Virus record (IMG/VR): IMGVR_UViG_3300027749_005140 | Location: 64,001-128,000 of that record | DNA length: 64,000 nt | Source of the DNA: a virus | Taxonomy: Duplodnaviria > Heunggongvirae > Uroviricota > Caudoviricetes | Strand: one strand, 5' to 3' | Shown here: positions 4,031 through 63,901 of the stretch, in pieces | How positions within the stretch are numbered: position 1 is the stretch's first letter | How the letters are laid out: every line of letters starts with the position of its first letter | Translations under genes and position numbers: made by a program | The notes under the pieces: generated by a model | Told to the model about the DNA's origin: nothing | Database searches by the model: none | What the model saw: only the letters and a program-made list of their open reading frames with translations

Positions 4031-5251
4031 ATGAATATAACAAAAAAATTCTTACAACTAACATCAAGAACTTATCCTCACGGTACTGAGCAAGAACTTT
4101 TTCACTTGTTACCGAAAAGTTTAAAAGAGGATGAATTTGGTAACTTATTTATTAAAATAGGTGAGAGCGATGTTATGTTTACTTCACACTTAGATACCGC
4201 AACTAAAGCAAATACAGAAGTCGTTCATATTTTTGACGGAGATATCATCAAAACTGATGGTAAATCTATCTTAGGTGCAGATGATAAAGCTGGTGTAACA
4301 ATTATGTTAAACATGATCGAAAAAAACATTCCAGGTTTATATTACTTTTTCTTAGGAGAAGAAGTAGGCTGTATTGGTTCAAGAAAAGTAGCAGACGTAC
4401 AAAAAGAAGAGAAAATTCCAGGTATCAACAAAGTAATCTCTTTTGACCGTAGAAGTACTGATTCTATTATTACATTTCAAAGTTCAAAAAGATGTTGTTC
4501 AGATACATTCGGTGATGCTCTTGCAAAAGCATTCAATGACGTTGAAGAAACATTCTCATATAAATTAGATAAAAATGGTGTTTTAACTGACTCTATACAA
4601 TTTATTAGTATTTATCCAGAGTGTACAAACATTTCTGTTGGTTATTACTCTGAACATACTTTCTCTGAAAGACAAGATATTGCTCACTTAACTAAATTAG
4701 CGGCAGCTTGTTTGAAAGTTGACTGGTCTGCATTACCTGTAGAAAGAGATCCATCTAAAGTTGAGTACGATTACTCTTGGGGTGCTTATGGTTACGGTGA
4801 TGATTGGGGTGCTTGGGGTGGTTCAAGATATGACACTGGTAACTATACCAATGCTTATGCTTCAACAAATGTTATGGATAACGATTACAGTTCTTCAAGA
4901 ACTAGACAACAAGGTGCTTACAGAGTTAAAACTGAGAAATCTTGGTTCTATGACGAATTGTTCCAATATCTATCTATGATTGAAACAAATGCTACAACTG
5001 GTAAAATAGTTAAAGTAGAATTGATCGAAGATAGAATTAAATATGAGTCTCAACTTATTACAAGATTGTTCAAAGATATTGAACTACACTATACTAAATT
5101 AGAATGGGATGGTTTCAAATGTACTGTATTCTATGAGTCAGAACACAGAACTGAATGTGATAGAAATGATTTGTTAGAGTACTTACCAGATTTAGATTAT
5201 CGTGGTTTAGAAATCTTAGGTGATTATGACGATAGTGTTTATATGTGTTAA
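4031..5251 (+). CDS. M28/M20-clan zinc peptidase
   Basis: FTSHLDT, GADDKAG, EEVG, SFDRR, TDS, NISVGYYSEHT. Start moved to ATG 4031, downstream of the TATATTTG promoter element. Confidence 0.8.
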   Translation: MNITKKFLQLTSRTYPHGTEQELFHLLPKSLKEDEFGNLFIKIGESDVMFTSHLDTATKANTEVVHIFDGDIIKTDGKSILGADDKAGVTIMLNMIEKNIPGLYYFFLGEEVGCIGSRKVADVQKEEKIPGINKVISFDRRSTDSIITFQSSKRCCSDTFGDALAKAFNDVEETFSYKLDKNGVLTDSIQFISIYPECTNISVGYYSEHTFSERQDIAHLTKLAAACLKVDWSALPVERDPSKVEYDYSWGAYGYGDDWGAWGGSRYDTGNYTNAYASTNVMDNDYSSSRTRQQGAYRVKTEKSWFYDELFQYLSMIETNATTGKIVKVELIEDRIKYESQLITRLFKDIELHYTKLEWDGFKCTVFYESEHRTECDRNDLLEYLPDLDYRGLEILGDYDDSVYMC

Positions 5252-8860: not shown

Positions 8861-9055
8861 TTAGTTTTCTAATACCTTATCGATATTAGCTTCTCTAACT
8901 TTAGCTTTTACAATACTTGGACTTTGCATATCCTCGTCTGTAATTCCTAATTGAGTTTTGATGATATTTAATAAATATCTTTCATTCTCCCATTTGTAGT
9001 TTGGTGCTTCTGACATATCTTCTGACATCATTCCACCACTAAAACTTTTGTTCAT
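8861..9055 (-). CDS. Small hypothetical protein with the C-terminal R-x-x-x-I-x-x-V-L tag
   Basis: Ends VREANIDKVLEN. Confidence 0.65.
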   Translation of the reverse strand: MNKSFSGGMMSEDMSEAPNYKWENERYLLNIIKTQLGITDEDMQSPSIVKAKVREANIDKVLEN

Positions 9056-15156: not shown

Positions 15157-15477
15157 ATGTGGGTAAAAATTGACGACGAAGTATTTCATGTCGAGGATAT
15201 AAGTGTACAACTTTCTATTTCTAAACATGCCACTATTTATCTGGATTTAGACATTCAGAACAATAAACACTACTACGACTTTTTTATAGATAAATATGAG
15301 AAGGTTAAGAATTTCACAATTGAACATACTAAATATATTGCAAAGGGCTGTCGTATAAAAACTATTGATATAGTTTTTAACTCAAAGTTAAATCTAAACA
15401 TCTACTGTGAACATATTGATACTGATGTATCTGAAAGAAGAGATTCTATCATTGAACAAATTTTAAAAGAAAAGTAA
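15157..15477 (+). CDS. Hypothetical protein with the C-terminal tag
   Basis: Ends ERRDSIIEQILKEK. Confidence 0.6.
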   Translation: MWVKIDDEVFHVEDISVQLSISKHATIYLDLDIQNNKHYYDFFIDKYEKVKNFTIEHTKYIAKGCRIKTIDIVFNSKLNLNIYCEHIDTDVSERRDSIIEQILKEK

Positions 15478-34303: not shown

Positions 34304-34756
34304 ATGATTTATATAGCACATAGAGGAAATACCAATGGTAAGTTTGAATCTTATGAGAATGAACCAAATTATATTGATATGGCAATTAAAAAAGGATTTG
34401 ATGTAGAGATTGATATTTGGTGTATTGATAATCTAATATATCTTGGTCATGATAAACCACAATATGGTATAGACTTTGGATGGTTACGTGATAGAATAAC
34501 AAAATTGTGGATACATTGTAAAAATTTAGAAGCAATGATTCTATTAAAGAATTGTGGATATGATACTAATTATTTTTGGCATCAAGAAGATGACTTCACT
34601 ATTACTTCAATGGGTTATTTCTGGACATATCCTGGTAAAGAATTAAGTAGTAACTCGATTGCAGTGATGCCAGAGACTAAAGAATTTAAAGACATTGAAA
34701 AGGCATACGCAATATGTTCTGATTATGTAGAAAAAATAAAATTAGATAGTGAATAA
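34304..34756 (+). CDS. Glycerophosphodiester-phosphodiesterase-like mini TIM-barrel protein
   Basis: IAHRGN, EN, DVEIDIW, LGHD, WIHCKN, ICSDY. Confidence 0.7.
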   Translation: MIYIAHRGNTNGKFESYENEPNYIDMAIKKGFDVEIDIWCIDNLIYLGHDKPQYGIDFGWLRDRITKLWIHCKNLEAMILLKNCGYDTNYFWHQEDDFTITSMGYFWTYPGKELSSNSIAVMPETKEFKDIEKAYAICSDYVEKIKLDSE

Positions 34757-34796
34757 AAAAACAGGTGCAGGTGGTGAAATTTATGGGGATAACTAT

Positions 34797-34958
34797 ATGA
34801 ATCAACCTCTAGGAAAATCATATGGTATTGATATAGAAGCTAAAATGACACAAATGTTGGCTGACGAACTAACAAAATCAATTGATGCAGACATCATGAA
34901 AGAACTATTCAGTAAGAGAAATAAAAGAAAAATTAAGATTGAAAATCTTTTTAAATAA
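34797..34958 (+). CDS. Small protein carrying a gp23 major-capsid-like segment plus the C-terminal tag
   Basis: YGIDIEAKMTQMLADELTKSIDADIM; ends RKIKIENLFK; ATG start at 34797. Confidence 0.55.
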   Translation: MNQPLGKSYGIDIEAKMTQMLADELTKSIDADIMKELFSKRNKRKIKIENLFK

Positions 34959-35550
34959 TCTGAATAATCTGAGGTACATCACCAAGTTCAAGTACCTTAC
35001 TTTGATTAAGTAAGAACTCAATATCATAAAAGTTAAAGTGAAAAGTAATTGTAAATTCTTTCGCATTAACTTTTTGTTGTGAGTAGTTGAAAGTATTTTC
35101 GGATAAAGATTTAAGTATTATTTCATAAAAACGAATGATATAAATCGCATCCCTATGTATATCAACACAAGTAATTGTAAATGGTTCTAAGAAAGCATTA
35201 TCTACATCTAAATAGTGTTTACTCATAATATCAAACATCAACCAGTAATTTAAGTCGGAATCAACAGATCTAAATGTAACAGTTAAATCATGTGTAGTTG
35301 GTATATCTTGAATATTTTTTGCCGGTTTTAAGAATCTTTCTTTACCTCTAACCTCAATACGTTTAACCAACTCAAATGATATTCCTGGGAAATTTACACC
35401 TTTAATAGTAGAGTTCAAATAATCAATAACATTTTCATATTGAACCCAATTCTTCTCAAGAACTGGTGTATAAGTATCTATAATCTCAGCCTTTAAAAAA
35501 GATTGTGGTAAATTAAATATAAACTGACTAGCTTGACTGGATAATCTCAT
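34951..35550 (-). CDS. Tail-tube-fold protein (T4 gp3/gp19/gp54-like)
   Basis: IKGVNFPGISF, LTVTFRSVDSDLNYWLMFD, EFTITFHFNFYDI. Confidence 0.6.
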   Translation of the reverse strand: MRLSSQASQFIFNLPQSFLKAEIIDTYTPVLEKNWVQYENVIDYLNSTIKGVNFPGISFELVKRIEVRGKERFLKPAKNIQDIPTTHDLTVTFRSVDSDLNYWLMFDIMSKHYLDVDNAFLEPFTITCVDIHRDAIYIIRFYEIILKSLSENTFNYSQQKVNAKEFTITFHFNFYDIEFLLNQSKVLELGDVPQIIQII

Positions 35551-35565
35551 CTGTTACTATTATTT

Positions 35566-37452
35566 TTATGACATTGCACCTGGTTTTATAATAGGAGCTT
35601 GTTCGTTTATTAGTTTTCTTGTAACAACTGCAGTTTCCTTAGTTGTATTTGGATCTAAAATAATACTTGGATTATTTGCTTGCATATTCGCCGCTTGATC
35701 ATTTAACGCATTTACGTTTGATTTACTATCATATATTTTGAATAATCCGGTATATATTACTGATGTAGTAGATTGACTCTTGCCGGTGATATAAAATATA
35801 TTTATACCACTATCATATATTCTTTTAATCTCTGCAAATCTACTTTGATTTACTTTAAATACTATTTGACCAATTGCTAAATTAATATCACCAGATTCTG
35901 TGAATAATGGAAATGTAATTTGATTTTGATCATTCTTTATAACAAAACTAATCTCACTTATACTTGTCATATTAAAATAATCTGGCTTAGTCTCTGGTCC
36001 AGTTGCAATAGAGAATTTAATAACATTATCAAATGGATAAAGTAAAACCTGGATCTTACCGAATCCATAAAACATCGCATTATTAAAAAGTGCATTATCT
36101 GATTTAGCAATGATATTAAATCTATCAATTAAAACTGGGAATGGAACCTTAATAGTTTCAATAACTACACCATTTTGTGAACTTAAATTATTCATACCTT
36201 GTGTATTACCATTACCATTACTCATACCATTACCTGGAGTACCTATACCAGTATTACCTAATACCAACGAACCATTCGCATTACCTAAACCACCAATTAA
36301 AGTAGTATTTATAGATGATTTTATGTTATAGATTTTTGGTTTAGAAACATTCTTAACATTGATTTTCATCATGTTTATTGCATATTTAGATAACTCATCT
36401 TGTAACATACCATAAGAGGCTCTTCTAATAATTGTACTATCATCAACACTATCAATAAGTCTCATCTCAACATCAATTATAGCAGTTGTAGAAGAGTATT
36501 TTATTATAGGTCTATATTCTATAGTTTCATTAAAATTATCTGTTACAGTTATTGTGGTAGTCTTCCCACGAATGTTTTGCTCATATAAAGTAATATCATA
36601 TTGAACATAATAATTTCTATCTAAAGTATATGAGTCATCAATAAATTTTTTAAAACCATATATTGTATCATTATAAACTCCATATATTTCAAAAAAGTCA
36701 CCATTTGGTGAATGTTGGACTACTAATCCTAGTCTTTCAAATTCTGGTGATTGTGGTATTGATGTTGTATTATTTGCACTTAATAAATAAGACTTAACAC
36801 TATTTATTGTTTGTATATTAGTTATAAAGTGAAAGTCAATGAATATTGGTGCAGTTGAACTTAATCCAATATTATCAGTAAGGTTATAGTTTATACTATT
36901 CTCTTTTGGTTTACCATCTAAAATTTGTGAAGATAACTCACTTAATGCTGGAATTTCAACTGTGATATTCTTACCCCATAACTTTTCTTGAAAAAGTAAT
37001 GGTGGTGATGTAAAGTTCAATAAATATTGTTGATTTATATCTGTCATATCAAAATAGAAATTAGATAAGTCATAAATTTTACTATTTGTATAATCATGTG
37101 CATAAACCTTTACATAGAATCCTAAATATTCTCCAAAAGTCCAATTTATTGGTAAGTGAACTTTTAAGGTATCGTGTCTTAATGGATTACCAGATGTATA
37201 ATCTTTTACTTGTAAAAATGAATAGTTATTAGTATTTATTTTACCATATCTACCGGAGATAGTATCAAGTTTAAATAATTGATTATTTATATCATTACCA
37301 GTAATACTTGATGGACCCGCCATATAAGCATTTGTTTTATATTTAGAATTAACTAAAATACTATATGGTTCAGATATTAGATTTGAATCATTATAGATAT
37401 ATTCCAATAGAATATTTTTGTCAAGTTTGATGTATTTAGAAATCTTAGACAT
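35566..37452 (-). CDS. Probable virion structural protein
   Basis: Beta-rich 628-aa ORF co-oriented with the tail-tube-fold gene; TAATATATA upstream. Confidence 0.5.
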   Translation of the reverse strand: MSKISKYIKLDKNILLEYIYNDSNLISEPYSILVNSKYKTNAYMAGPSSITGNDINNQLFKLDTISGRYGKINTNNYSFLQVKDYTSGNPLRHDTLKVHLPINWTFGEYLGFYVKVYAHDYTNSKIYDLSNFYFDMTDINQQYLLNFTSPPLLFQEKLWGKNITVEIPALSELSSQILDGKPKENSINYNLTDNIGLSSTAPIFIDFHFITNIQTINSVKSYLLSANNTTSIPQSPEFERLGLVVQHSPNGDFFEIYGVYNDTIYGFKKFIDDSYTLDRNYYVQYDITLYEQNIRGKTTTITVTDNFNETIEYRPIIKYSSTTAIIDVEMRLIDSVDDSTIIRRASYGMLQDELSKYAINMMKINVKNVSKPKIYNIKSSINTTLIGGLGNANGSLVLGNTGIGTPGNGMSNGNGNTQGMNNLSSQNGVVIETIKVPFPVLIDRFNIIAKSDNALFNNAMFYGFGKIQVLLYPFDNVIKFSIATGPETKPDYFNMTSISEISFVIKNDQNQITFPLFTESGDINLAIGQIVFKVNQSRFAEIKRIYDSGINIFYITGKSQSTTSVIYTGLFKIYDSKSNVNALNDQAANMQANNPSIILDPNTTKETAVVTRKLINEQAPIIKPGAMS

Positions 37453-37487
37453 TTGTTATAGAAACAATATTTTATTGTATATATTAA

Positions 37488-37520
37488 AAAAGAAAACCTT
37501 TCTTATGAAAGGTTTTCTTT
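37488..37520 (-). terminator. Terminator hairpin
   Basis: AAAGAAAACCTTTC...GAAAGGTTTTCTTT overlapping the stop of 37503..37916. Confidence 0.65.
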
Positions 37521-45722: not shown

Positions 45723-45896
45723 TTATTTTAATATGGCTTTTATTTTTTCTTTTCTTTCTAAATTTTTTGATAAACTTACTTTTAATTCAAACCATTCACC
45801 TTTTGAGTAAATACTATTTATACGAGTATATGTATCATAATACAAGTCACCATCATTAGGATTACTTGGTTTAGTATCAAATGATAATCTTGACAT
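45723..45896 (-). CDS. Small protein (57 aa) with the C-terminal tag, not in ORF track
   Basis: MSRLSFDTKPSNPNDGDLYYDTYTRINSIYSKGEWFELKVSLSKNLERKEKIKAILK; TAATG overlap with upstream gene. Confidence 0.6.
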   Translation of the reverse strand: MSRLSFDTKPSNPNDGDLYYDTYTRINSIYSKGEWFELKVSLSKNLERKEKIKAILK

Positions 45897-46321
45897 TAAA
45901 AATTATTATAAATCATTTTTGTTAATTTAGGATCATTAAAAGTATTACCATTAAAGAAAAGATAAATACCTTTTAGTCTCTTCACTTCTAAAATTGCCAA
46001 TTCTTCTGTTTCAAATATATTCAACATAATAGGAACTGATTTTAATTTACCTTTTTCAAATATTCTATGTTCTCCTTTAATATCATTAAAATATCTAAGT
46101 TCGATTATACTAAAGTATCCAGTTTCTACTTGATGTATCTTATATTTTATAACATAAGGTTTATTACTATACTCTTTTGTAAATATAAGAGCATCAATAC
46201 ATTCTAACATAACTTCATCTGTATGTAGATTTCTAATATTTTCCAAATCTCTTTTAGACTTTGATTGATTTATACTACACCAAAATAAACTATCTAATGT
46301 AGTTACTTGTAAATTAAACAT
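45896..46321 (-). CDS. Hypothetical protein
   Basis: TAATG overlap with dnaJ. Confidence 0.55.
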   Translation of the reverse strand: MFNLQVTTLDSLFWCSINQSKSKRDLENIRNLHTDEVMLECIDALIFTKEYSNKPYVIKYKIHQVETGYFSIIELRYFNDIKGEHRIFEKGKLKSVPIMLNIFETEELAILEVKRLKGIYLFFNGNTFNDPKLTKMIYNNF

Positions 46322-47391
46322 TAAAAATTACCAGCATTTTTTAGTTTTTCCAGTATTGCTTTTTGTTCAAGGTTGATAGACTTTGGTATTCTAATTCTAA
46401 TATTTATTACTAAACTTCCCATACCTTCGTGAATATCTGGAATTCCTTTACCATTTACTCTTATAATCTTACCGTGTTCTGTACCCGGTTCAATAGCTAC
46501 TATTACATCACCGTGTGGTGTTTTAACCGATACATTGTTACCAATTATTGCATCAATAACTGAAATCTCTACATCAACTATAATGTTACCACCTTCTCTT
46601 CTAAAATATGGCTCTCTAATTTCATCAAAGACAATATATAAGTCTCCCGGAACACCATTGACTACATGATTTCCAAATCCCGCCATACTCATTTGCATTC
46701 CATTTCCAACACCTTTAGGTATTTCAACATCAACGGTTTGTTCTTTTAAAGTTGTTCCATGTCCGTGACAAACATTACACTTGTTTGCTATTTGAGTTCC
46801 AGAACCATTACAGTCAGGACAACCCGAAACATTTCTAATTTGTCCAAATGGTGTATTTTGTACTACAGTTCTTTGTCCAGAACCATTACACGGAATACAA
46901 GTTCTTACATCGGAACCACCTTTACCATTACAAGGATTACAAGGTTCATGTCTTTTATACTTTAATTTCTTTGTAGCACCATTGATTATTTCTTCAATAG
47001 TTAAAGTAACTTTTATTCTTAAATCAGATCCTTTTGATTGTCTTTGTTGTTGTTGTTGTTGTCTTTGACCACCACCAAATATATCTCCAAATTGACTGAA
47101 TATATCATCCATATTGAAACCGTGACCTCTTCCACCACCGAATGGATTTCCACCTCCGAATGGGTTACCTCCACCATCTGCAGATCCGAATCTATCAAAA
47201 TTAGATTTCTTTTCTGGATCAGAAAGCACATCATAAGCTTCTGCAGCTTCTTTAAATTTTGTTTCTGCTTCTGGATTACCTGGATTTTTATCAGGATGCC
47301 ACTTCATTGCCATTTTACGATAAGACTTCTTAATCTCATCTTCTGATGCTGTTTTATCAACACCTAGTACGTTATAATAATCTTTTGCCAT
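46321..47391 (-). CDS. dnaJ: DnaJ co-chaperone (type I)
   Basis: J-domain HPD, G/F-rich region, four CxxCxGxG-type repeats, C-terminal domain. Confidence 0.95.
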
Positions 47392-47394
47392 ATT

Positions 47395-47709
47395 TTATGT
47401 TAATATTTTTTCTAATTTTATATCTCTATATATTTGTTTGGTTGTATCTGTCAGTCTAATACTTACCCATCTATTATATCTTATAATGAACTCAGTATTA
47501 CTTATCATTGAAGACATAATTGGCATCTCATCAATTATATCTTTGAATATAGTTTCTGCATCTTGTATCATCCAATTTTCTATTTCTGATAATCTTTTAC
47601 AGAAATAATCCATAAATGGGGTAGCAGTATCAATAACGTTACCTAGATAAATATCAGAGTTAAACCCCTGTGGAGCGCCTTCTGATATTTGTACATACCA
47701 ATTAATCAT
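47395..47709 (-). CDS. Hypothetical protein with the C-terminal tag
   Basis: Ends IYRDIKLEKILT. Confidence 0.6.
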   Translation of the reverse strand: MINWYVQISEGAPQGFNSDIYLGNVIDTATPFMDYFCKRLSEIENWMIQDAETIFKDIIDEMPIMSSMISNTEFIIRYNRWVSIRLTDTTKQIYRDIKLEKILT

Positions 47710-48223
47710 TTATTATTCTCTTTAAATTTTTATCTCTTGTTGCCAATTTCATATCAGCATCAACTGTTTCTGAATTATATGCTATATGGAATAAACCTGC
47801 AATATAATTATCAACTATAAGTTGTAGTGTTTCTTGTGTTCTATCTAAATTATCAAATATCTCTAATTTATTTGAAGACTTTGGTATAATTAAAACCAAA
47901 TAATCTAAAAATTCATCTATATCAAATAATAATTCAAATAATTGTAACCTTTCTTTTTTTAACATAGAAGGTGGAGTAACATAAACTTTACCCCACACTC
48001 TTCTAATTGTCGGTAGAATAAAATCTAGTAGATCATCATCACCATCATACAAATTTCCTTGAAATTCAAATCCTTTAAATAAGTAAAGTTTCTTATCAAT
48101 AACATATTCTAATAAATCTCTAAATTCAGATGTATTTTTAATACCTTGACACAACGTATCAAGAATTATTTCTCGATACGATGGGTTTTGATTTATTTCT
48201 AATATGGAAGGTTTAGTATTCAC
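47702..48223 (-). CDS. Hypothetical protein with a weak gp23-like segment and the C-terminal tag
   Basis: FILPTIRRVWGKV; ends TRDKNLKRIIND. Confidence 0.55.
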   Translation of the reverse strand: MNTKPSILEINQNPSYREIILDTLCQGIKNTSEFRDLLEYVIDKKLYLFKGFEFQGNLYDGDDDLLDFILPTIRRVWGKVYVTPPSMLKKERLQLFELLFDIDEFLDYLVLIIPKSSNKLEIFDNLDRTQETLQLIVDNYIAGLFHIAYNSETVDADMKLATRDKNLKRIIND

Positions 48224-48675
48224 TATTTTCCTAATACAACTTTTGGATATCTAAAAGGTTTACCATTTAATGTATAACCTTTAGTGACTACATCTATTAC
48301 TTTTTTAGCACCTGCTTCAGTTATACTAATAACTTCGTGTAACTCATCATCATAAGTTTCAGTTTGAATTGGTTCAATACCTTGTGACTTTAAGAAAGTT
48401 TCTAATTTTTGTGCGATTAGTAAAACTCCTTTATCAACTTTATCCATTGATTTCAAAGCCAATGTAACATCATTATCCATATCAATAACAGATGATAACA
48501 TTTTAGTTTTTGTGTTTAATACTAACTCTTCTTTATCTTTCTGAACTCTTCTTTTGTAGTTTTCAAAATCTGCATAAAGACGTAAGTATTTGTCCTCGGA
48601 CTCTTGTAGTTTTTGTTCTACTGTTACTTCAACAATAGTTTCTTCTAAAATTTCTTTTTGTTCTTCGTTTTCCAT
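48223..48675 (-). CDS. grpE: GrpE nucleotide exchange factor
   Basis: YLRLYADFENYKRR, HEVIS, VV-x-KGY-x-LNG...R-x-PKVVL. Confidence 0.9.
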   Translation of the reverse strand: MENEEQKEILEETIVEVTVEQKLQESEDKYLRLYADFENYKRRVQKDKEELVLNTKTKMLSSVIDMDNDVTLALKSMDKVDKGVLLIAQKLETFLKSQGIEPIQTETYDDELHEVISITEAGAKKVIDVVTKGYTLNGKPFRYPKVVLGK

Positions 48676-48680
48676 TTTTA

Positions 48681-49178
48681 TTAATAATTAAATTTAAGCA
48701 TCTTCTTTACCGCACTTGCGTTATAAAACTCATATATAACATTTTTGTCTTCAAGTTCAATCACTTCTAGTTTTTCTAAACTTATTTTCATTTCATCTAT
48801 GTATTCAACAAGCTCTTTTAATGAGTTTACCCAACCAGCACTAGGCTCCCAATAGTCAGGAAATTTATCTAAAAACTTATCAACTGCGTAGTCAAAGTTT
48901 TTCTTTCTTATAAGTAACGTACCATCTTTTTTAGGGTTATTGATAGATTTATTACTCAAAAATTCAGTAACATAAGTATTAAACTTATGAATTAAATTTA
49001 TAGTTTCGATTATTTTAAGTAAACCCATTACTAATGCATCTCTTTCAGATATTTCTATCTCTACATTTTCTTTAAGTATTCTTTCCGCTTCTTTTTCAGT
49101 ACATTGAAGTACATAATATACATAGGAGTCCCAAAGGCAACGCTTCACGATCTCTTCGGGACATAAAGTTATTTTCAT
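48681..49178 (-). CDS. Hypothetical protein
   Basis: First gene of the grpE-dnaJ operon; middle-type motif upstream. Confidence 0.6.
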   Translation of the reverse strand: MKITLCPEEIVKRCLWDSYVYYVLQCTEKEAERILKENVEIEISERDALVMGLLKIIETINLIHKFNTYVTEFLSNKSINNPKKDGTLLIRKKNFDYAVDKFLDKFPDYWEPSAGWVNSLKELVEYIDEMKISLEKLEVIELEDKNVIYEFYNASAVKKMLKFNY

Positions 49179-49256
49179 ATTATTTTTAGTAATTTTATTA
49201 TTATATGTGTATTTAGTAAGAAGTTTTTCTTATCTTTGTCAAAATATAATTAAAAC

Positions 49257-49448
49257 ATGGAAATAAACCAAAAAGTAGAATTAAATAAGAAGATTAAATC
49301 TTATGATGGTGCTAATTCATTTTTAGTGTCATTACAGAAGCAATTAAAAACAAATACAAAATTAAATAAAGAAGACTTTAAAGGAAGACAAGTAAAAGTT
49401 TTAAGTGATAAACAATACTCTGTTGCCGAAAGTTTATTAAAAGACTAA
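49257..49448 (+). CDS. Hypothetical protein
   Basis: TATCTTTG element upstream. Confidence 0.55.
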   Translation: MEINQKVELNKKIKSYDGANSFLVSLQKQLKTNTKLNKEDFKGRQVKVLSDKQYSVAESLLKD

Positions 49449-49451
49449 AAT

Positions 49452-49664
49452 ATGAATAACAATTATAACATCGCAGTATCTGCAATAGATCTTCTTAGTG
49501 ATGGTTTAACATCTAACAACCATACTAAGATAAGAGAAGCACTTAATATGATTCATGACGAGAATTTTTCTTGGAGTGGATTAGAAGTTGTCAAGATGGA
49601 GTGGGATGAATTATTATTAGAAATTAAGCGAAGATACGAAGAAGTAAAAGTAAAACTTAAATAA
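49452..49664 (+). CDS. Hypothetical protein
   Basis: Operon position. Confidence 0.55.
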   Translation: MNNNYNIAVSAIDLLSDGLTSNNHTKIREALNMIHDENFSWSGLEVVKMEWDELLLEIKRRYEEVKVKLK

Positions 49665-49665
49665 A

Positions 49666-50925
49666 ATGAAAACACTATACAACATACCAACTTACGATGA
49701 AGCATTAGCTTTGGTTAATAGAGTGGACTCTCCATTCTACGAGTCAAAATCTATTGTTGGTGGGTATGCTGTATCTACTTTCAACTATAGATTAGCTTCT
49801 TGGGCGGATTTCAATGATGTAGGTGCGAAAGAAATGAGAGGAATATCATACGTATTCAACTCTGACGGATCTTTGTTTAAAAGATACTTATTATTAGAGA
49901 AATTCTTTAACTTGAACCAAGTACCAGATACTATGTATTCAGAAGTTAAAGATTTCAAAATAAAATCTATCTACAACAAAGAAGATGGATCTGTTGCATC
50001 ATTTATAAAACTTCCAGATGGATCAGTTTTTGGTAAATCAAAAATGTCTGTTATTACAGACCAAGCAGAAGGTATCATGAGAGTTTACAAATCAAATGAG
50101 TCTGTAAAAAGATTTGTTGATTGGACTTTCGATAACGATATATCTGCAATCTTTGAGTATGTCGCTCCATCAAACAAAATTGTTTTGAGATATGCAAAAG
50201 AAGATTTAATCTTGTTAAAATTGAGAGATAATGTTACTGGTGAACTATTAGACTTAAATGACTATTTAGACGTAATCGGAGACATTAGAATGGCGCCTTC
50301 TGAGGCAGGTTATACTTTAGACGAGTTAATCGAAATGGCTTCTTACACAGAAGATAAAGAAGGATGGATAATTGAATTTACTAACGGTTTATTGATGAAA
50401 ATCAAAACTGATTGGTACTTCAAAAGGCACGGTATATTGACTGAGGATATTTACAGAGAAAACATTATAATCAACTACATCTTAACTGATGAAATTGATG
50501 ATGTTGTTGCACAAATCCCAGAAGATGAAGTAGAAGCTCACGCTAGAATTGAAAAAATTATCTTAATAGTTAAAAGAGCTTTATCTAAAAAAGTTGAAGA
50601 AATAAAAAGATCATATGAGTTCTACTTAACTGTGGGTTCAAGAAAAGATTATGCAATCAACTATAGAGGTAAAGAAGAGAACTTCGCGTTTGTAATGAAA
50701 ATGGCGACTGTAGATGAAATGGCATTACTATCAAGAGAAGAAATCTTAGAAATCTTTGAAGAATATGAAAGATATGAATATATGATCAAAAATTCTGAAC
50801 CATTTGAAATGGCGAAAGGTTGGTTGTCGAGAGATACTAACAAATTGTTAATAGCAAGAGATTGGTTATCTAAAATTGACCCAACTTTATTCTTCATTGA
50901 CGTTGAAGAAGATGTAGAAGACTAA
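49666..50925 (+). CDS. T4 RNA ligase 1 (RnlA) family
   Basis: LEKFFNLNQ, K-x-DGS adenylation motif (YNKEDGS), FEY-x-APSNKIVL-x-Y, EGW, MKIKTDWY. Confidence 0.85.
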   Translation: MKTLYNIPTYDEALALVNRVDSPFYESKSIVGGYAVSTFNYRLASWADFNDVGAKEMRGISYVFNSDGSLFKRYLLLEKFFNLNQVPDTMYSEVKDFKIKSIYNKEDGSVASFIKLPDGSVFGKSKMSVITDQAEGIMRVYKSNESVKRFVDWTFDNDISAIFEYVAPSNKIVLRYAKEDLILLKLRDNVTGELLDLNDYLDVIGDIRMAPSEAGYTLDELIEMASYTEDKEGWIIEFTNGLLMKIKTDWYFKRHGILTEDIYRENIIINYILTDEIDDVVAQIPEDEVEAHARIEKIILIVKRALSKKVEEIKRSYEFYLTVGSRKDYAINYRGKEENFAFVMKMATVDEMALLSREEILEIFEEYERYEYMIKNSEPFEMAKGWLSRDTNKLLIARDWLSKIDPTLFFIDVEEDVED

Positions 50926-50950
50926 AACCCACCGATTGGTGGGTTTTTTA
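50923..50950 (+). terminator. Rho-independent terminator
   Basis: AAAACCCACC-gatt-GGTGGGTTTTTT. Confidence 0.85.
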
Positions 50951-51104
50951 AAAATTTGTAAAACTTTTTTAATTTTTACAATATATATTTAGTGTAAAGA
51001 TTATGTATGACATAATGTCATTATCTTATGTATAAATGTCAGTAAAATAACTTTGGCACAGAAATTGAATATTACTAATTACAAAAAAATAAATTAATTA
51101 AATT

Positions 51105-52997
51105 ATGGCAAAAGATGTAATCATCGGAATCGATCTTGGAACCACTAATAGCTGTGTAGCAGTTGTTGAAGGTGGAGAACCAATCGTTATTTCAAATTCA
51201 GAAGGTAAAAGAACAACACCTTCAGTTGTAGGATTCACTGATAAAGACAGAAAAGTTGGTGACCCTGCGAAAAGACAAGCAGTTACAAACCCTGAAAAAA
51301 CTGTTTACTCAATAAAAAGATTTGTAGGGAAAGACTTTTCATCTTGTACAGATGAAGTAACAAGAGTTCCTTACAAAGTAGAAAAAACTGGCTCAAATGT
51401 ACCTGGTGTTAGAATTGACGACAGAGTATATACTCCACAAGAAATCTCAGCAATGATTCTTCAAAAGATGAAGAAAACTGCAGAAGATTACTTGGGTTAT
51501 GAAGTAACTAGAGCAGTTATTACCGTTCCTGCTTACTTCGGTGATGCAGAAAGAACAGCAACAATCGAAGCAGGAGAAATCGCTGGTTTGAAAGTTGAAA
51601 GAATTATCAATGAACCAACTGCGGCTGCTTTAGCATATGGTTTAGATAAGAAAAACACTGAATCTAAAATTTTAGTATTTGACTGTGGTGGTGGAACTCA
51701 CGACGTGTCTGTATTAGAAATTGGTGATGGTGTTTTTGAAGTAAAATCTACTGATGGTGATACTCACTTAGGTGGTGACGACTTTGATAATGAAATCATT
51801 ACTTGGATGGTAGAAGAATTCAAATCTGAAAATGGTATGGATTTATCAAAAGATGCTATGGCATTACAAAGATTAAAAGAAGCTGCTGAGAAAGCGAAGA
51901 TTGAATTATCTTCTTCTACAACAACTGATATTAATCTACCTTACATCACATCAAGAGACAATCAGCCTTTACACTTTGTTAAACAGTTAACTAAAGCGAA
52001 ATTTGAACAAATGACTAGTTCATTAGTTAAAAGAGCTATTGATTGTGCAAAGTCTGCTCTTAAAAGTGCTAAATTAAAACCATCTGATATTGACGAAGTT
52101 ATCTTAGTTGGTGGTTCTACAAGAATTCCTGCTATTCAAGATGCTATCGAATCATTCATTGGTAAGAAAGCAAACAAATCTGTGAACCCAGATGAAGTTG
52201 TTGCGTTAGGAGCAGCTATTCAAGGAGCAGTTTTAACTGGTGGTATTTCAGATGTATTACTTTTAGATGTAACTCCTCTTTCACTTGGTATTGAAACAAT
52301 GGGTAGCGTATTTACAAAATTGATTGATGCAAATACTACTATTCCTACAAGAAAAAGTGAAACATTCTCTACTGCCTCAGATAATCAATCATCAGTGGAA
52401 ATCCACTGTCTTCAAGGAGAAAGACCGATGGCAAGAGATAACCGTTCTTTAGGTAGATTCCATTTAGATGGTATCCCACCTGCACCAAGAGGTGTTCCCC
52501 AAGTTGAGGTGATTTTGGATATCGATGCTAACGGTATACTTTCTGTAACCGCGAAAGATAAAGCTACTGGTAAAGAAAACAAAATCCGAATTGAAGGTGG
52601 TTCTCAGTTGACTAAAGAGGAAATTGAGAACATGAAGGCAGAAGCTGAAGCTAATGCAGAATCTGATAGAATTGAAAGAGAAACAGTTGACAAACTTAAC
52701 GGTGCAGACAACTTAATCTTCCAAACAGAAAAACAAATTAAAGAGTTTGATGAAAAACTATCAGAAGAAGACAAGAGAGCTTTAGGTATAGACCTAGAAG
52801 AATTGAAAAAAGCTTATGCTGATAAAAATGTTGATGCAATTGACGAAAGTTCTAAAAAACTAAGTGAATCATGGCATGCAATCAGTACTAAATTGTACGA
52901 ACAATCTCAAAATGAACCTGAGCAAACTAACGAAAGCTCAGATGATAATGTTGAAGATGTAAGCTTTGAGGAAGTTTCTGATGAAGAAACTAAGTAA
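51105..52997 (+). CDS. dnaK: Hsp70 chaperone DnaK
   Basis: [57 protein letters not shown]. Confidence 0.97.
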
Positions 52998-53061: not shown

Positions 53062-53310
53062 ATGAAAGAAATATTTAGTAGTGTTATAAGAAAAAAAGTT
53101 ACTAAACTAATTAGTGATATAGGGTTAGATATTTCGGAGATAGTTATCAAATTACCTCTAAGTATTGAAACTTTTGATACTATAGAATTGATCAATAATA
53201 CTATTATTCTTCATAGATTTGAAGCTAATTTAGATTATATTTTTCTTTTTGATCATTTAGAAGATGAAGATAAGTTAGAGGTATATAAACTACTTTTTAT
53301 TTATTTATGA
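53062..53310 (+). CDS. Hypothetical protein
   Basis: TTATATATA upstream. Confidence 0.5.
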   Translation: MKEIFSSVIRKKVTKLISDIGLDISEIVIKLPLSIETFDTIELINNTIILHRFEANLDYIFLFDHLEDEDKLEVYKLLFIYL

Positions 53311-53805
53311 CGAATATCTACTTTTATTCTTTTCTGCAAGATAAGCTTTTAAGTCTTCATAGTTGACATTACCTGGATTACTAAATATTTTATCAGAAAA
53401 ACCAATTGGTTTATCCTCAATCTTTTTAATTTCATTCGCTTTTACACGCTCATCATACTCTTCTTCAACAGTTTTTAGTATGTGTCCTAAGTAAAATTCG
53501 ATACCTTTATCTCTTACTAATAAATTATCCAATTCAAATAAAAATTCTTGTAAATCGTCAGTATAAACTGCAAAAGATTTATCTTTTATATAATGATCTA
53601 CATAGAACTTTATATCACCAACATTTCCCTGTCCATAAATTGTGGTATTATATTGCATGTTATAAAACTTTGCAAACTTATCTTTATCATTATAAATACG
53701 GGATCCATTTTTCTCTATAGTAGGAACTAATCCTAAACTAACTCTAAAATACCTGGATTTTTTAAATTCTTGAAGTGTTTGAAAACTTGATACTATACTT
53801 AACAT
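53305..53805 (-). CDS. Hypothetical protein
   Basis: ORF track. Confidence 0.6.
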   Translation of the reverse strand: MLSIVSSFQTLQEFKKSRYFRVSLGLVPTIEKNGSRIYNDKDKFAKFYNMQYNTTIYGQGNVGDIKFYVDHYIKDKSFAVYTDDLQEFLFELDNLLVRDKGIEFYLGHILKTVEEEYDERVKANEIKKIEDKPIGFSDKIFSNPGNVNYEDLKAYLAEKNKSRYSS

Positions 53806-62773: not shown

Positions 62774-63187
62774 TTATATTTTAATTATTTCTACCCCTGC
62801 TTCTCTTAAAAACTCTACACCAGTTATATCTTTGTAATCTTCGTGATAAACTAATCTTTTAATTCCTGATTGAAGAACTAATTTAGAACAATCTCTACAC
62901 GGAGAATGTGTTTGATATAATGTTGCACCATCACAAGATTGACCGTGTTTAGCACATTTTAAGATAGCATTTGCTTCTGCGTGAATAACAAACCAATTAG
63001 TTTCATCATTAGTCTCACAGCAGTTATCAAACCCTGTCGGTGTTCCATTGTAACCATCTGATACAATCATACCATTTTTTACAATTATGGCTCCTACTTG
63101 TTTTCTAGTACAATGTGAAAGTGTTGCCCACTCGTGAGCCATATTTAGATATACTTTATCGTATCTTTCTTGTTTTTCCTTTTCCAT
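62774..63187 (-). CDS. dCMP deaminase (ComEB-like)
   Basis: SHC-x-R-x-QVGAIIV, GYNG-x-P-x-G, HAEANAI, SPC-x2-C. Confidence 0.9.
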   Translation of the reverse strand: MEKEKQERYDKVYLNMAHEWATLSHCTRKQVGAIIVKNGMIVSDGYNGTPTGFDNCCETNDETNWFVIHAEANAILKCAKHGQSCDGATLYQTHSPCRDCSKLVLQSGIKRLVYHEDYKDITGVEFLREAGVEIIKI

Positions 63188-63357
63188 TTCATTATTCTTT
63201 TAATTTTACCAATACGTCTATGTTTTCTGAGTATCTTATGAAACTCTTCATAAGTTTCTTTTGAAGTAACAACATAATTAGCAGAACCTCTTATAGAAGC
63301 TCTACTAATCTCATTTGCTGCTTTACTTATCTTACTAATTAAAGATCGATTATCCAT
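63145..63357 (-). CDS. Small protein carrying a gp23 major-capsid-like segment plus the tag
   Basis: LISKISKAANEISRASIRGSANYVVTS; then RRIGKIKRIM; start moved to ATG 63357. Confidence 0.55.
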   Translation of the reverse strand: MDNRSLISKISKAANEISRASIRGSANYVVTSKETYEEFHKILRKHRRIGKIKRIMKWKRKNKKDTIKYI

Positions 63358-63901
63358 GAATTTTATCAATCTGATGTAAATCCAAAGTCAATGGTGTTTT
63401 TCTACCAAAGATTGAAACTGCTAGAACTACTTTTTGATCTTCAACTTTCTCAACGGTCGCTTTCATTGTAGTGAAAGGTCCTTCGTTTATCATAACTTCT
63501 TCACCAACAATATAAGAAAGTGTTGATTCTTTAGTCATTGATTCAGTATGTCTACCAATCATTCTATTTACTTCTAATTCAGTAAGTGATTTAATGTCAC
63601 CATTTCTTTCTGTTAAGAAACCGGCAACTCCTTTAACACCTTTTAAAAAGTATTTAAGTTCTCCTAATGAATTAGTTTCCATAAAGATATATCCAGGTAA
63701 CATAATAGTTTCTTTCTGAACTTTCTTACCATTTTTCAAGTAGAAAATCTTTTCAAGTGGAACAATTACTTGTCCTACTTTACCAATAAGATCTCCATTC
63801 TCTGCTTCTTTTGTAAGACGCTCTGCTACTGATTTTTCGCGGTTTCCAGCGGTGCGGACCACATAAAAGCTCATACCTTGTGTATGTTTTGTATTTTCCA
63901 T
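63350..63901 (-). CDS. nusG: NusG transcription elongation factor
   Basis: NGN domain FYVVRT-x-GNRE...PGYIF...VAGFL; KOW domain GEEV-x-I-x-EGPF...VSIFGRKTP. Confidence 0.85.
   Translation of the reverse strand: MENTKHTQGMSFYVVRTAGNREKSVAERLTKEAENGDLIGKVGQVIVPLEKIFYLKNGKKVQKETIMLPGYIFMETNSLGELKYFLKGVKGVAGFLTERNGDIKSLTELEVNRMIGRHTESMTKESTLSYIVGEEVMINEGPFTTMKATVEKVEDQKVVLAVSIFGRKTPLTLDLHQIDKIHG

Follow-up and report, generated by a model that had tools for sequence, protein, structure and literature searches.

We have analysed a small viral gene whose product joins an isolated element of the T4-type major capsid protein to a basic C-terminal helix, referred to here as the tag, which recurs on many unrelated proteins of the same contig. 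The gene lies at 34749-34958 of the window, the term used for the whole 64,000-nt stretch of DNA analysed, which corresponds to bases 64001-128000 of a 131.9-kb viral contig with 29% G+C, the contig being a genome fragment. The nearest deposited relatives are two uncultured huge phages, LR745206.1 (634.8 kb, referred to as W01) and LR756502.1 (642.4 kb, W02). Judged from sequence, 34749-34958 is a real, conserved and translated-looking gene, and its product may act as a tag-docked mimic competing for the partner of the copied capsid element, a proposal to which we give an even chance of being correct.

The mini-gene and its genomic setting

The first-pass annotation had reported a 53-aa ORF with an ATG start at 34797-34958; this ORF is present and reads as quoted there. 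Its start was misplaced by 48 nt, as the conserved gene begins at GTG 34749, in an 8-nt overlap with the preceding gene and its stop codon. The 16 additional N-terminal residues of the 69-aa model contain the motif K-T-G-A-G-G-E-I-Y, kept in most family members, and independent gene calls on other metagenomes give close homologues of 68-71 aa with this same architecture. Conservation of the N-terminal extension in relatives, combined with the layout of these homologues, defines the mini-gene as 34749-34958, encoding 69 aa. The gene, its parts and its immediate border are as follows.

34749..34958, plus strand: whole mini-gene, 69 aa, GTG start and TAA stop, defined by the conserved N-terminal extension and dN/dS
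34749..34802, plus strand: N-terminal part, residues 1-18, with the K-T-G-A-G-G-E-I-Y motif, from alignments A1 and A3; predicted disordered (pLDDT 56-65)
34803..34913, plus strand: capsid-like segment, residues 19-55, from PF07068, phrog_138 and PDB profile matches; helix pLDDT > 90
34914..34955, plus strand: basic C-terminal helix tag, residues 56-69, R60-x3-I64-x2-L67-F68, from alignments and the contig motif count
34951..34958, no strand: 8 nt shared by the 3' ends of the convergent mini-gene and tail-tube-like gene, from the sequence and ORF list
34951-35550, minus strand: tail-tube-like neighbour gene, 199 aa, a language-model lead only

The N-terminal part is variable and is absent from the two closest relatives (L010 and L011); searched alone, the K-T-G-A-G-G-E-I-Y motif had no match in the PDB or in the W01 and W02 genomes.

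Two conserved genes of 199 and 628 aa adjoin the mini-gene at window positions 34951-37452 on the minus strand, neither having a Pfam or PHROG match. A language model gave a lead from the 199-aa gene to the Phage_TTP_2/gp19 tail tube families, and the two neighbours are probably very divergent tube and sheath genes. At 37453-37520, a G+C-rich hairpin with a T-run is followed by A-T-A-T-A-T-A ~25-30 nt before the start codon of a structural gene. The same unit is found upstream of the capsid gene (L005, L004) and of a sheath-like gene (L002, L003) and is a candidate late promoter or terminator unit of the clade. It precedes the mini-gene in one relative only, L028, and promoter and terminator scans detected nothing above shuffled expectation. 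A full capsid gene was not found within the 131.9-kb contig, which is a fragment.

An orthologue of the mini-gene is present at the same, syntenic place in both W01 and W02. Retrieval via the neighbouring 199-aa gene yielded 55 IMG/VR loci, two of which end too early to judge, leaving 53 that were scored. The mini-gene directly follows the 199-aa gene in 27 of these 53 loci, convergent with it and with ends overlapping by a few bases, and is missing from the slot in the remaining 26, where sugar-enzyme genes or nothing are found instead. Absence from the slot in about half of the related loci indicates that the mini-gene is accessory and not a core assembly factor. The slot after the tube-like gene is the boundary of a variable, swappable glycan cassette. 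In L015, L017, L020, L023, L025, L027, L035, L037 and L053, differing sugar-enzyme genes directly fill the slot and the mini-gene is absent there.

Where present, the gene is under purifying selection. Nei-Gojobori dN/dS values were 0.13-0.35 for twelve closer pairs, in which dS is unsaturated or mildly saturated, and 0.36-0.48 for three more distant pairs. The first-pass annotation had asked whether the short ORF is conserved in relatives with its own start and stop or is a non-conserved, untranslated remnant; the former is observed, and the remnant reading does not hold for an ORF that is conserved in this manner.

The family is large. A profile search of 5.8 billion proteins identified 711 clusters at 90% identity (E <= 1e-3), and among the matches listed the proteins are 55-89 aa in length and are named only 'hypothetical protein'. 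An exhaustive HMMER search of 1.84 billion representatives identified 440 clusters at 50% identity, nearly all of 42-95 aa, and no longer or fused form of the family was recovered among 8000 scored candidates. Two apparent long forms were rejected: P0170 (762 aa, eight stretches) is a repeat protein and a false positive, and P0140 (225 aa) is a fusion or read-through with an upstream enzyme-like gene. A rare variant, P0271 (152 aa), joins the spine helix to the C-terminal strands of the capsid protein and does not carry the tag. The architectures of P0271 and P0140 may show how the mini-genes arose. In L011, a truncated second copy of the mini-gene (4700-4795, minus strand) comprises the helix start only, without the tag, ~1 kb from the intact copy, and looks like a remnant of duplication or recombination.

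Likeness to the T4-type capsid protein

The only Pfam family matched by the 69-aa protein is PF07068 (Gp23), residues 19-55 aligning with profile positions 160-196 at 19 bits (E 1e-3), a score under the curated cut-off of 24.4 bits and a match covering 37 of the 376 profile positions. Family members score 24.5-30.8 bits against the same profile, above this cut-off. The major head protein family of the PHROG collection, phrog_138, was matched by 16 of 19 members (best E 1.8e-7) over profile positions ~213-256. A PHROG scan of the 53-aa ATG version alone returned nothing at E 0.01 or better, the match being seen only for the 69-aa model and for family members. A weak match to phrog_14392 (47 positions, unknown function), likewise found in 16 of 19 members, was discarded as unspecific, since this profile also rings in 6 of 14 control genomes. 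When searched against all PDB sequences, the 19-member profile identified T4 gp24 residues 188-224 (E 1.2e-4), and a 130-member profile returned only gp24 (E 5e-4) and gp23 (E 0.025, residues 269-312), the gp23 alignment reaching back to residue 269 only with this larger profile. The initial claim that a small gene with its own start and stop carries an isolated segment of gp23, position for position, is thus borne out by profile matches. The gp23 stretch given in support of that claim is in register with published residue numbers (D285, D287, G292, V306, V307; PMC9546572).

The likeness extends to the capsid protein of the phage clade itself. In a six-frame search of the whole W01 and W02 genomes, the helix part matched only the orthologous mini-gene and the phages' own capsid gene (560-571 aa; E ~3e-5), aligning with residues 335-373 of the own-clade major capsid protein (MCP). 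The gp23 assignment, which the first-pass annotation had tied to profile searches against gp23 and the MCP of the phage clade, is upheld by significant matches. The family scores 21-22 bits against its own clade's capsid protein and 23.4 bits against T4 gp24. The capsid helix is identical in W01 and W02, and the mini-gene helices of these two phages are ~60% identical by our own count. As the family is no closer to the capsid protein of its own clade than to gp24, and its helices diverge faster, the mini-gene is an old offshoot of the capsid lineage that has evolved on its own, and it does not stem from a recent duplication of part of the capsid gene. In LR745206.1 it is located far from the capsid gene (440 kb versus 201 kb). 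A split or intron-interrupted capsid gene was considered and rejected, because 28 kb separates the pieces, which are not on the same strand, and because an intact capsid gene of 560-571 aa is present in the relatives as well.

The complete HK97 fold, with A and P domains, E-loop and N-arm, is not present in the 69-aa product, for which a disordered N-terminus and one long helix are predicted; the mini-protein is a fragment derivative, not a capsid protein. Comparison with T4 gp23 and gp24 (PF07068, PHROG 138, HK97 fold; PDB 1yue, 5vf3, 6uzc, 8gmo) shows that residues 19-55 align without gaps with gp24 188-224 and gp23 ~276-312 and that the conserved positions of the family are the consensus positions of the capsid family. 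In contrast, the mini-protein has ~44 of the > 400 residues and adds an unrelated C-terminal tag, and it is without the A domain, P-domain sheet, E-loop, N-arm and insertion domain, so that it cannot form a capsomer.

On alignment evidence, the copied piece is gp23 269-312, which takes in the short helix of the P domain together with the greater part of the long spine helix. In our own mapping from alignment coordinates and residue numbers, D28 of the mini-protein corresponds to gp23 D285, L37 to L294, I45 to I302 and I49 to V306; D28 is nearly invariant in the family, and L37, I45 and I49 are invariant. The short P-domain helix of T4 is negatively charged and, close to the quasi-threefold axes, contacts adjacent capsomers through its charges; the head-length mutations A268V, A275T, D285V and D287V/N sit beside it (PMC9546572). 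The triple change G292S/V306I/V307I, located in the spine helix, bypasses the requirement for the gp31 co-chaperonin (PMC9546572).

For the window protein, AlphaFold2 predicted a disordered N-terminus followed by one helix, residues 29-68, with pLDDT > 90 in the helix. In the model of a typical 75-aa member, a short helix is followed by one of 24 residues, and a G-x-E-P-D turn then interrupts the chain before the tag, which forms a helix of its own; this predicted layout mirrors the short-helix and spine-helix architecture of the capsid protein. A Foldseek search of the PDB with the 75-aa model returned no meaningful match, as expected for two or three helices.

The C-terminal tag and other tagged capsid pieces

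The tag is a short amphipathic C-terminal helix of the form R-x3-I/L-x2-I/L-L/F. R60 and I64 are invariant in both family alignments (A1 and A3). The motif R-x3-[IL]-x2-[ILV]-[LFIMY] is present in the last few residues of 13 of the 179 predicted contig proteins (~7%), which are mostly small (median 106 aa). It occurs internally only 5 times in 24x more positions, a 61-fold C-terminal enrichment (Fisher p 5.5e-15). The motif was set after the tails had been inspected, but one and the same motif served for the positional control. Numerous other small ORFs of W01, W02 and G000 likewise end in a match to the tag part of the family profile. The earlier observation that the tag is shared with other ORFs is confirmed by these counts. 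Tagged ORFs of the window include the following.

8861..9055, minus strand: tagged small ORF, 64 aa, by tag motif; no family match
15157..15477, plus strand: tagged small ORF, 106 aa, by tag motif; no family match
45723..45896, minus strand: tagged small ORF, 57 aa, by tag motif; no family match
47395..48223, minus strand: two tagged ORFs of 104 and 173 aa, flanked by grpE and dnaJ of the phage, by tag motif; without capsid likeness
63145..63369, minus strand: tagged sister mini-ORF with a different capsid segment (R-G-x-x-N-Y-V-V strand region), by phrog_138, PF07068 and tblastn

None of the other 12 contig proteins in the motif count has a capsid match, 10 having been screened by Pfam and PHROGs and the two at 47395-48223 checked separately; the 10 screened proteins also matched no Pfam family and no named PHROG. 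The ORF at 47702, which the first-pass annotation had listed with the mini-gene, carries the tag but gave no Pfam or PHROG capsid match. In W01, neither the 707-aa gene directly upstream of the capsid gene nor the other genes next to it carry the tag, and nothing therefore links the tag to the head-assembly machinery. Window positions 46321-52997 contain phage-encoded Hsp70 (819 bits), DnaJ and GrpE genes, with a T4-type RNA ligase gene nearby.

Tagged genes with other pieces of the capsid protein were detected in this phage and in a relative. The sister ORF at 63145-63369 matched phrog_138 at E 1.4e-4 (profile positions 281-314) and PF07068 at E 1.5e-4, and its best tblastn matches are all T4-like capsid genes. 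In W01, a tagged mini-gene of 61 aa (L009:1507-1692, LR745206.1 ~222206-222391) matched phrog_138 positions 180-213, a strand and short-helix segment which directly precedes the region at ~213-256 matched by the 34749-34958 family. As separate tagged genes carry other or adjacent capsid segments, the design is a repeated one and not a one-off relic. A further capsid-like stretch at genome 12940-13005, found by tblastn, has no start codon, is probably a chance match and was set aside. A 166-aa ORF at window positions 53305-53805 (minus strand), without the tag, is conserved in W01 and W02 at 57-66% identity. Within it, at 53640-53584, G-D-I-x-F-Y-V-D-x-Y-x-K resembles the capsid C-terminal region (tblastn E 0.14), a likeness that has no Pfam support and may be due to chance.

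Proposed function, alternatives and relation to known systems

The mini-protein would, in the reading we favour, be a molecular mimic, or 'microprotein', of the short-helix/spine-helix element of the capsid protein. The tag would dock it on a common hub, and the capsid-like helix would compete for whatever normally binds that element in the capsid protein. The preferred partner would be the capsid protein itself, or capsomers during head assembly, and the mini-protein could modulate or block the joining of capsomers either in the phage's own very large head or in that of a co-infecting T4-type competitor. Capsomer-capsomer assembly is the first-choice target because in T4 the element is an inter-capsomer contact and a head-length determinant, because several interface-type pieces are tagged and because small helical mimics made by satellites, such as CpmB (PMC5644958), are known to alter capsid size. 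A core role in assembly is weakened by four observations: the gene is accessory, it borders a glycan cassette that is swappable, its helix varies independently of the phage's own capsid protein, and the tag is common to many unrelated proteins. The same four observations keep alternatives based on a decoy, on the tag only or on chaperones alive. A further point against a mimic is that, once the capsid protein has folded, most of the spine helix is buried within the same subunit, so that a free copy need not reach an interface.

More broadly, huge phages might keep a set of 'addressed' microproteins, each combining one conserved interface or core element of the T4-type capsid protein with a universal docking helix. 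Such proteins could act in trans on capsid assembly, setting the geometry of the phage's own head or blocking co-infecting T4-type phages, or could serve as baits that hand host capsid sensors over to the phage hub. This generalisation is tentative, and we think it somewhat likelier to fail than to hold.

The alternative that survives best, itself unlikely, is an immune decoy or bait, the main idea of the first-pass annotation, in which the capsid-like helix would occupy a host capsid sensor (Lit, CapRel or Avs7/Dsr1-like) without triggering it. The tag might then pass the bound sensor on to a hub of the phage, for instance a protease or a factor that sequesters it. An accessory, patchy gene at the edge of a swappable cassette is consistent with this role, as are the tagging of several different capsid pieces and the evolution of the mini-gene, which is faster than that of the capsid helix yet keeps the positions conserved across T4-type capsid proteins. 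Defences that sense capsid proteins are described, some of them acting with EF-Tu (PMC9712102, PMC13581612). However, the copied segment corresponds to gp23 residues 269-312 and not to the Gol region at 93-122, which Lit senses, and no sensor is known to read gp23 269-312; Avs-type sensors are reported to recognise folds and not linear peptides (PMC13581612). No signature of a defence or anti-defence gene was seen beside the mini-gene, and a decoy leaves the presence of the tag on many unrelated proteins unexplained.

This last feature is accommodated if the gene is an exapted relic, the capsid-derived helix now being a generic body for a tag-dependent function that has nothing to do with capsids, as in the other small tagged proteins. 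We regard this as rather unlikely. The tag is carried by at least 12 other contig proteins, with a capsid match in none of the 12, and the mini-gene does not covary with the capsid helix of its clade, both as expected of a relic. In contrast, it is precisely at the consensus positions of the capsid family that the mini-proteins are most conserved, independent tagged genes carry other capsid segments, and in the rare relative P0271 the helix is joined to capsid C-terminal strands, all of which counts against a generic body.

A role in folding is distinctly improbable. The free helix would mimic the segment that makes gp23 dependent on GroEL/gp31. It would regulate folding of the capsid protein by binding to chaperones (a chaperonin, or the Hsp70/DnaJ/GrpE set that the phage encodes) or else to the P-domain sheet of newly made capsid protein that is still unfolded. 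The gp31-bypass sites G292, V306 and V307 are indeed inside the copied helix (PMC9546572). Hsp70, DnaJ and GrpE are encoded in the window, with two tagged ORFs between grpE and dnaJ, but these arguments concern position only, and 12 kb separates the mini-gene from the chaperone genes. To our knowledge, the tag is not a typical Hsp70 substrate motif, which also counts against this role. Finally, chance similarity or a non-coding ORF is hardly credible: the window protein alone reaches 19 bits against the 24.4-bit Pfam cut-off and short amphipathic helices can resemble one another, but family members exceed the cut-off, PDB and whole-genome profile searches return only capsid proteins, and hundreds of clusters are under purifying selection.

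If the mimic reading is true, parts of the capsid protein, made as separate small proteins, serve the phages with the largest known genomes as regulators or weapons. The only precedents for this are satellites, which copy the tails of scaffold proteins, and the microProteins of eukaryotes. Because T4 head-length mutations cluster in the copied piece, the family would offer a handle on the sizing of very large capsids or on phage-phage exclusion. The occurrence of a shared C-terminal helix on ~7% of proteins suggests that these phages have a docking hub not yet described, and its discovery would place dozens of 'hypothetical' small genes in a functional context for the first time. The family comprises hundreds of clusters, and its members are short enough for direct synthesis and testing. 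A full-text literature search found no description of stand-alone capsid-fragment genes, of a shared C-terminal tag in huge phages or of a phage-encoded capsid-fragment decoy.

Three groups of known systems invite comparison. A short terminal peptide serving as an address or docking label on otherwise unrelated proteins is familiar from the T4 capsid targeting sequence and from the clamp-binding tails of gp43, gp33 and gp55. In T4 internal proteins the targeting sequence is at the N-terminus, where the prohead protease removes it by cutting at L/I-x-E, and the C-terminal clamp-binding tails of T4/RB69 gp43, gp33 and gp55 end in aromatic pairs. In contrast, the tag described here is a C-terminal helix with R, I/L, I/L and L/F at i, i+4, i+7 and i+8. 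Nor does the mini-protein resemble cargo of the capsid targeting sequence, its shared element being C-terminal and its N-terminus variable.

Gol/Lit, CapRel and Avs7/Dsr1 (PMC9712102, PMC13581612) show that short or conserved capsid features are read by host defences, which a decoy could exploit. The mini-protein differs from the Gol peptide in the segment carried, which is gp23 269-312 in place of 93-122.

There is also a likeness in form to SaPI1 CpmB, P4 Sid and PLE TcaP, with which the mini-protein shares a small, helical, stand-alone character, the reuse of part of some head-assembly protein as an element that competes for binding and a plausible role as a modulator of capsid geometry; CpmB is a small helical protein that redirects capsid size by competing with the scaffolding protein of the helper phage (PMC5644958). 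CpmB differs in being satellite-encoded and in mimicking the scaffold, whereas here the gene is phage-encoded and the element mimicked is that of the capsid protein. CpmB reportedly shares a C-terminal motif with the scaffolding protein of its helper phage; in the present case, the shared tail is found on many non-structural proteins, and the function of the mini-protein is a predicted one. At most, the mini-protein would work like a scaffold-mimicking size redirector or a microProtein.
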